In this document: piece by piece, positions 52,190-52,672 of the stretch | How positions within the stretch are numbered: position 1 is the stretch's first letter | Layout: each line of letters opens with the position of its first letter | Assembly (NCBI GenBank): GCA_045651985.1 | Contig: JAZRTK010000026.1 | Coordinates: 173,102-237,101 of the forward strand | From: Eubacteriales bacterium | GTDB lineage: Bacteria; Bacillota; Clostridia; Oscillospirales; CAG-272 | Direction of reading: 5' to 3' | DNA: 64,000 nt | Program-made: the position numbers and the translations under genes | Notes under the pieces: model-generated | Databases searched by the model: none | Told to the model about the DNA's origin: nothing | The model's input: the letters and a program-made list of their open reading frames with translations, nothing else

Positions 52190-52672
52190 TCAAACTGTGT
52201 AGAAAAGAATGGGAAGAAGGGAAACCAGAAGCGCGAAGATCGCGTAGGTCACAACGAGAGCCGCAGCTGTGATAGCCTTACCTACTTCATCGGGGCGCTT
52301 GGCGATAAGGTTGATGCCCGCAGCAGATACCTTTGCCTGATGGATCGCGGAAATGTAACCAACGACTGCGATAGGGAGAGAAGCCATGAGGAAGTATGCG
52401 CCCTGTGCAACAGTGAGCGTTACCATTTCGCCAAAAAGACCTATCTTCATGAGAATAAGGAAGGCTGTGATAAGACCGTAGATACCCTGTGTACCGGGAA
52501 GAGCCTGAAGAAGCAGAGCCTTACCGAACTTGGAGGGGTCCTCTGTGAGAAGTCCCGCGGATGCCTGACCAACCATTCCAACAGCCTTTGCGCTTCCGAG
52601 GCCCGAGAATATTGCAGCAACCGCTGCACCGATGATTGCGATATTGTTTCCGTTAAAAATTTCCTTAAACAT
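52190..52672 (-). CDS. ntpK: V-type ATP synthase proteolipid subunit K (4-TM double hairpin); Val replaces the conserved TM4 Glu
   Basis: 160 aa, aligns with E. hirae NtpK. LPGTQG and HQAK ligands are present, but LVVTYAI appears where MVETYAI is expected. Confidence 0.9.

Follow-up and report, generated by a model that had tools for sequence, protein, structure and literature searches.

The closest described relative of the rotor subunit studied here is NtpK, the proteolipid of the Na+-transporting V-ATPase of Enterococcus hirae. Its Na+ pocket is formed by L61, T64, Q65, Y68, Q110 and E139, and the numbering of L61, T64, Q65, Q110 and E139 that the first-pass annotation of our locus had used agrees with the published one (PMC10382590). 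NtpK mutants in which E139 is replaced by Asp or Gln have lost Na+ transport, and R573 and R629 are the stator residues that interact with the ring (PMC10382590). We describe here a V/A-type ATPase operon from an uncultured gut Clostridia bacterium in which subunit K, as written in the assembly, has a valine in place of this glutamate. The same kind of loss has been engineered in the F-type c subunit of E. coli (Asp61) and in yeast Vma3 (Glu137), where removal of the single mid-membrane carboxylate from every protomer abolishes ion translocation while the complex can still assemble. These two proteins belong to enzyme classes different from the one described here, and their mutations are laboratory constructs, not natural alleles. 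A natural rotor hairpin with a lost carboxylate is found in the c1 double hairpin of Acetobacterium woodii (4bem), which ranks third among the fold matches to our model of subunit K. However, the A. woodii double hairpin keeps one carboxylate and resides in a mixed ring together with normal c subunits, whereas the only carboxylate of the K protein studied here is gone. No relevant account of a natural V-type ring free of carboxylates came up in a literature search.

Results

Operon layout and neighbouring genes

The window, by which we mean the whole 64-kb stretch of DNA that was analysed, belongs to a 242-kb contig and is tiled by long unbroken open reading frames (ORFs) with ordinary Pfam assignments and no frameshift debris. 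The ORF list and Pfam reveal a complete V/A-type ATPase operon of nine genes on the minus strand (46259..54946), arranged in the order small 104-aa ORF, I, K, E, C, F, A, B and D, all on one strand. All nine ORFs are full length, K is present as a single gene, and subunits I, K, E, C, F, A, B and D each have a Pfam match (eight of eight). The genes of the operon, together with two other genes of the window that are taken up below, are:

54632..54946, minus strand, small first ORF of the operon, 104 aa, no Pfam match, conserved in 26 related loci
52685..54610, minus strand, subunit I (stator a-subunit), 641 aa, PF01496, both Arg motifs intact
52190..52672, minus strand, subunit K, NtpK-like proteolipid of the V/A-type ATPase, 160 aa, double hairpin, PF00137 twice, motifs LPGTQGIY and HQAK
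51501..52163, minus strand, subunit E, 220 aa, PF01991
50451..51461, minus strand, subunit C/d of the AC39 family, 336 aa, PF01992
50141..50458, minus strand, subunit F, 105 aa, PF01990
48324..50102, minus strand, catalytic subunit A, 592 aa, PF00006, PF16886, PF22919 and PF02874
46936..48309, minus strand, subunit B, 457 aa, PF00006 and PF22919
46259..46909, minus strand, subunit D (central stalk), 216 aa, PF01813 (E=1e-56)
3799..4914, minus strand, beta subunit of a Na+-transporting decarboxylase, PF03977 OAD_beta (E=3e-152)
55252..58215, plus strand, ABC-ATPase/FtsX-permease fusion gene

Judged from its position, the leading 104-aa ORF probably encodes a small peripheral-stalk subunit, G/H-like. 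The alignment of subunit I with E. hirae NtpI (8wci_P, E=3e-67) spans the entire protein, and both arginine motifs, SYSRILALG and HTSRLQYIEFF, are kept and match those of NtpI; the stator arginine context is intact, as had been noted before. The likeness to the E. hirae ntp operon thus includes a full-length NtpI match with both stator arginines, and the other genes are of the V/A type by Pfam. Different from E. hirae, the host of this operon is an uncultured gut Clostridia bacterium.

The decarboxylase beta subunit encoded elsewhere in the window suggests that the organism has a Na+-based energy economy, a Na+ cycle to which the V-ATPase would belong. A wild-type enzyme working either as Na+ pump or as Na+-driven synthase would fit such a cycle. 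The beta-subunit gene lies apart from any obvious alpha or gamma partners among ORFs of at least 130 aa. Regarding other rotors, tblastn and a Pfam survey found no second proteolipid and no F-type c subunit or ATPase gene within the 64-kb window, the F-type part of this search being weak. The check for a second rotor proposed in the first-pass annotation therefore came back empty for this stretch.

Codon 141 and the ion-binding site of subunit K

Read directly from the sequence, codon 141 of K is GTG (Val), at 52252..52250 of the minus strand, within the coding-strand context GCT CTC GTT GTG ACC TAC GCG (A L V V T Y A). It is one transversion away from GAG, as had been stated, and the sole change at the codon is base 52251, which is A on the plus strand and T on the coding strand. 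The K protein contains two ATP-synt_C repeats in one chain (PF00137, E=3.9e-30), and among all PDB chains its best phmmer match is E. hirae NtpK (2bl2, E=7e-38), with 49% identity over 159 aligned columns. In this alignment the segment 'aalvVtyai' of K stands opposite 'aamvEtyai' of NtpK, so that V141 corresponds to NtpK E139. The earlier claim of a gap-free alignment over TM2-TM4 was confirmed for the helices proper, as the only gap is a 5-residue insertion in K that falls into the loop between helices 2 and 3. Apart from this longer loop and the valine at the Glu139 position, K resembles NtpK closely: L61, T64, Q65, Y68 and Q110 of NtpK are L58, T61, Q62, Y65 and Q112 of K, all conserved and all invariant in a 41-sequence alignment. 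The Thr and Gln ligands that had been read from the LPGTQG and HQAK motifs are hence in place (T61, Q62 and Q112).

The AlphaFold2 model of K (pLDDT 93) has helices at residues 8-44, 46-77, 88-125 and 127-156 and superimposes on 2bl2_A with a TM score of 0.89 and an rmsd of 2.2, with the same four-helix double hairpin. V141 sits at the midpoint of helix 4. All six acidic residues of the protein (E4, E44, D45, E82, D128 and E129) lie at helix termini or in loops, and no re-alignment places a carboxylate in a helix core. The absence of any other acidic residue from the helix cores, noted in the first-pass annotation, was thereby borne out, and the misalignment that it had named as a way to overturn its reading was not found. 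Subunit K thus has the two PF00137 repeats and the fold of a proteolipid as well as the E. hirae-type ligands of the Na+-binding subtype, and lacks the one functional hallmark of the family, the mid-membrane glutamate of helix 4. It is best called a family member by descent and, as written, a null (or mis-read) allele of an ordinary member.

Integrity of the operon and of the assembly

Eight operon proteins were compared with their homologues in a total of 80 loci, and 674 columns that are at least 97% conserved were scored. The window deviates at a single one of them, K141, and at none of the other 673; subunit A shows no deviation at 275 conserved columns and subunit B none at 273. Among the conserved columns of K and I we found no co-varying changes. 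Decay of the operon or a noisy assembly was considered and rejected, given the zero deviations at the remaining 673 columns and the unbroken ORFs.

The wild-type sequence at the site, GAGACC (GGTCTC), is a BsaI-type (type IIS) recognition site. A systematic methylation-type miscall at GAGACC was excluded: the window retains 57 such sites against 25.6 expected, more than any shuffled sequence.

The glutamate in relatives

Alignment with close relatives, as had been proposed, gave glutamate in every relative examined. Among the best 120 database proteins (72-100% identity) only the window's own has Val; the other 119 of 119 have Glu, including one at 99% identity. The same holds for 79 of 79 loci from species-representative genomes, which are metagenome-assembled genomes of uncultured Clostridia or Oscillospiraceae type from the guts of ruminants, other animals and humans; these related operons likewise carry one K gene each, and it has Glu. 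A sequence-pattern scan of the reference loci picked up 70 matches, of which 49 have GAG as the codon and 21 have GAA. When 1.84 billion cluster representatives were scanned exhaustively with phmmer, 1246 matches were obtained; of the best 150 of these 101 cover the position, all 101 with Glu (155 of 155 aligned segments, multi-hairpin proteins included); no lineage without the glutamate is found among these best 150. Because the column is Glu in 119/119 proteins, 79/79 loci and 155/155 segments, Val141 is not a deviation at a variable site. The nearest reference genomes have about 80% DNA identity to the window, at which distance silent sites are saturated, and polarising against them helps only at 52251, where all have T, and at a few other positions.

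Much closer sequences were available from public gut-metagenome runs and ENA contigs. The plus strand at 52251 is T, giving GAG, in contigs of the runs X1, X5 and X6 and in the ENA contigs L001 and L002; GAG in relatives is an outcome that the first-pass annotation had named as refuting its reading. A 511-nt contig of X1 (52037..52547) matches the window at every base but 52251 (A>T), and so does a 350-nt contig of X5 over its 301 nt of overlap (52100..52400); X6 is a more distant relative. Over 1.5 kb the identity to the window is 99.5% for L001 and 99.7% for L002. Both encode the K protein of 99% identity with Glu, and within the K gene 52251 is their sole difference from the window. The valine is thus private to this one assembly and results from a single A-to-T transversion on the coding strand.

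Over 19 kb, X1 and X2 show scattered differences from the window and hence represent sister strains, not the source sample. Strain-level differences in this region amount to about 0.1-0.3%. Position 53432 is another derived change nearby that is private to the window, in this case synonymous, and so the window lineage carries private mutations of its own. In subunit E the window differs non-synonymously from X1/X2 at 51625 and 51776. A cluster of window-private non-synonymous changes across E and K (51625, 51776 and 52251) was considered and rejected; at 51625 and 51776 the window has the majority, ancestral residue and X1/X2 are derived. Of the public runs searched, the best share at most 0.61 of the sampled words of the window and belong to other strains, and two sampled 31-mers specific for the Val allele occur in none of the runs.

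Discussion

The locus, from an uncultured gut Clostridia bacterium, encodes a Na+ V-ATPase of the NtpK type that is ordinary and, except at this one codon, intact. We narrowly favour, at somewhat better than an even chance, that the valine is a real and very recent, probably inactivating mutation, private to the assembled strain or population. The mutation would be very recent because the window deviates only at K141 of the 674 conserved columns and all nine ORFs are full length. We infer that the base is real, as opposed to a sequencing error, from the strain differences of the region, from the private change at 53432 and from the clean 242-kb contig. A divergence of 0.1-0.3% between strains is far above usual consensus error rates, which are a general figure and not one specific to this assembly.

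As for mechanism, GAG to GTG in the sole K gene would replace the ion-binding glutamate of helix 4 by valine, and since the operon contains no further K gene, the carboxylate would be missing from all protomers. A rotor of this kind would presumably be unable to bind Na+ (or H+) or to pair with the stator arginines; by analogy, this is expected because E139 mutants of NtpK lose Na+ transport. Ion translocation and the coupled ATPase or synthase activity would then be lost, making this a null allele. The cell may tolerate it, for example by means of another ATPase elsewhere in the genome, or the allele may be transient. Compared to the E139(D/Q) laboratory mutants of NtpK, in which the same carboxylate is replaced, the allele of the window is a natural (or artefactual) counterpart, with a fully apolar valine and in an environmental assembly.

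The main rival, which we consider appreciably less probable and nevertheless a serious one, is an error of sequencing, assembly or polishing, with GAG as the true sequence and a normal enzyme. A null hit at the most constrained residue without any other decay is exactly what a random consensus error looks like as well. The change is a singleton, at which near-identical strains differ from the window in this base only, the glutamate is never missing in relatives at any distance examined, the operon shows neither accompanying decay nor compensation, and the two sampled Val-specific 31-mers are found in no searched public run. GAG in relatives, which the first-pass annotation had implied would prove an error, shows only that the change is private to the assembly. 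Against an error speaks that the assembly is clean, with long unbroken ORFs, no frameshift debris and no other deviation at the 674 columns, and that a methylation-type miscall at GAGACC is excluded by the sites retained. Moreover, true single-nucleotide variants between strains greatly outnumber random consensus substitutions in long contigs.

As a sub-case of the real mutation, the ring might not be the only rotor of the cell, and the variant might be tolerated because the genome has a second proteolipid gene, another V-type operon or an F-type ATPase outside the window whose product takes over the function or co-assembles with K; we regard this as improbable. Many Clostridia carry both F- and V-type ATPases, and the 64 kb are the only part of this genome seen; however, the window itself offers no second proteolipid or F-type c subunit by tblastn and Pfam, and related operons make do with a single K that has the glutamate. 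It is very improbable that Val141 is real and fixed in a living strain, with a ring devoid of any ion-binding carboxylate and a V-ATPase that is either silently dead or does something other than pumping ions; this would amount to a natural experiment. In a purely speculative version of it, loss of a Na+-ATPase could be advantageous where a Na+ ionophore makes pumping futile. The first-pass annotation described the sequence correctly in all the details that were checked. Of its readings, error and recent inactivating mutation remain, while a genuinely unusual rotor is not supported as an evolved trait. A carboxylate-free rotor evolved for a new or altered function (a locked rotor, a regulatory role or a different coupling chemistry) is hardly credible: the stator and the remaining Na+-site residues show perfect conservation, which is compatible with continued selection and does not require it, but strains that are 99.5-100% identical in the K gene have Glu and leave no time for adaptation, no co-varying changes are found in K or I, every lineage among the best 150 matches of the 1.84 billion-representative scan has Glu, and E139 mutants of NtpK are transport-dead (PMC10382590).

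If the base is real, the locus represents one more young loss-of-function allele segregating in a gut bacterial population, and its main use would be as a natural E-to-V control for NtpK-type rotors. An error, on the other hand, would call for caution in annotation pipelines, since a protein can clear every family threshold and still, as written, be non-functional. In either case no new ion-coupling chemistry is revealed; the observation in the sequence is real and its meaning ordinary.

Further observations in the window

Several features outside the operon deserve mention. Strains are polymorphic in the intergenic region downstream of the V-ATPase operon: at 45820..46116, between the gene for a 1750-aa surface protein and subunit D, X1 has a 184-nt skip, and X2 has a 1-nt insertion behind 46004 and a cluster of substitutions; further on, X1 has a 1-nt deletion at 46226. 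On the other side of the operon, the ABC-ATPase/FtsX-permease fusion gene contains a patch that is locally hypervariable or recombined, in which 7 of 19 nt (55725..55743) differ between X1 and the window, several of these differences being non-synonymous, and X1 contig joints skip 75-79 nt (55592..55672).

The 1750-aa protein itself (40729..45981, plus strand) combines BspA-type leucine-rich repeats with an esterase-like segment and is likely a cell-surface protein. Two ORFs of about 1000 aa each overlap on opposite strands, 16818..19772 (minus) and 16860..20021 (plus), with a Pfam match (SLH domain) only on the plus strand; the antisense ORF on the minus strand is probably a by-product of base composition. 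Subunit B is likewise overlain by a long antisense ORF (47215..48564, plus strand). A 765-aa protein (9487..11784, minus strand) joins a GT4 glycosyltransferase to a polysaccharide pyruvyl transferase domain. Finally, an 865-aa ORF (13877..16474, plus strand) looks like an unusual fusion, in which residues 9-591 make up a complete translational GTPase of the EF-G/TetM kind (GTP_EFTU, EF-G domains II-IV and C) and residues 720-861, at the C-terminus, a YacP-like NYN nuclease domain.
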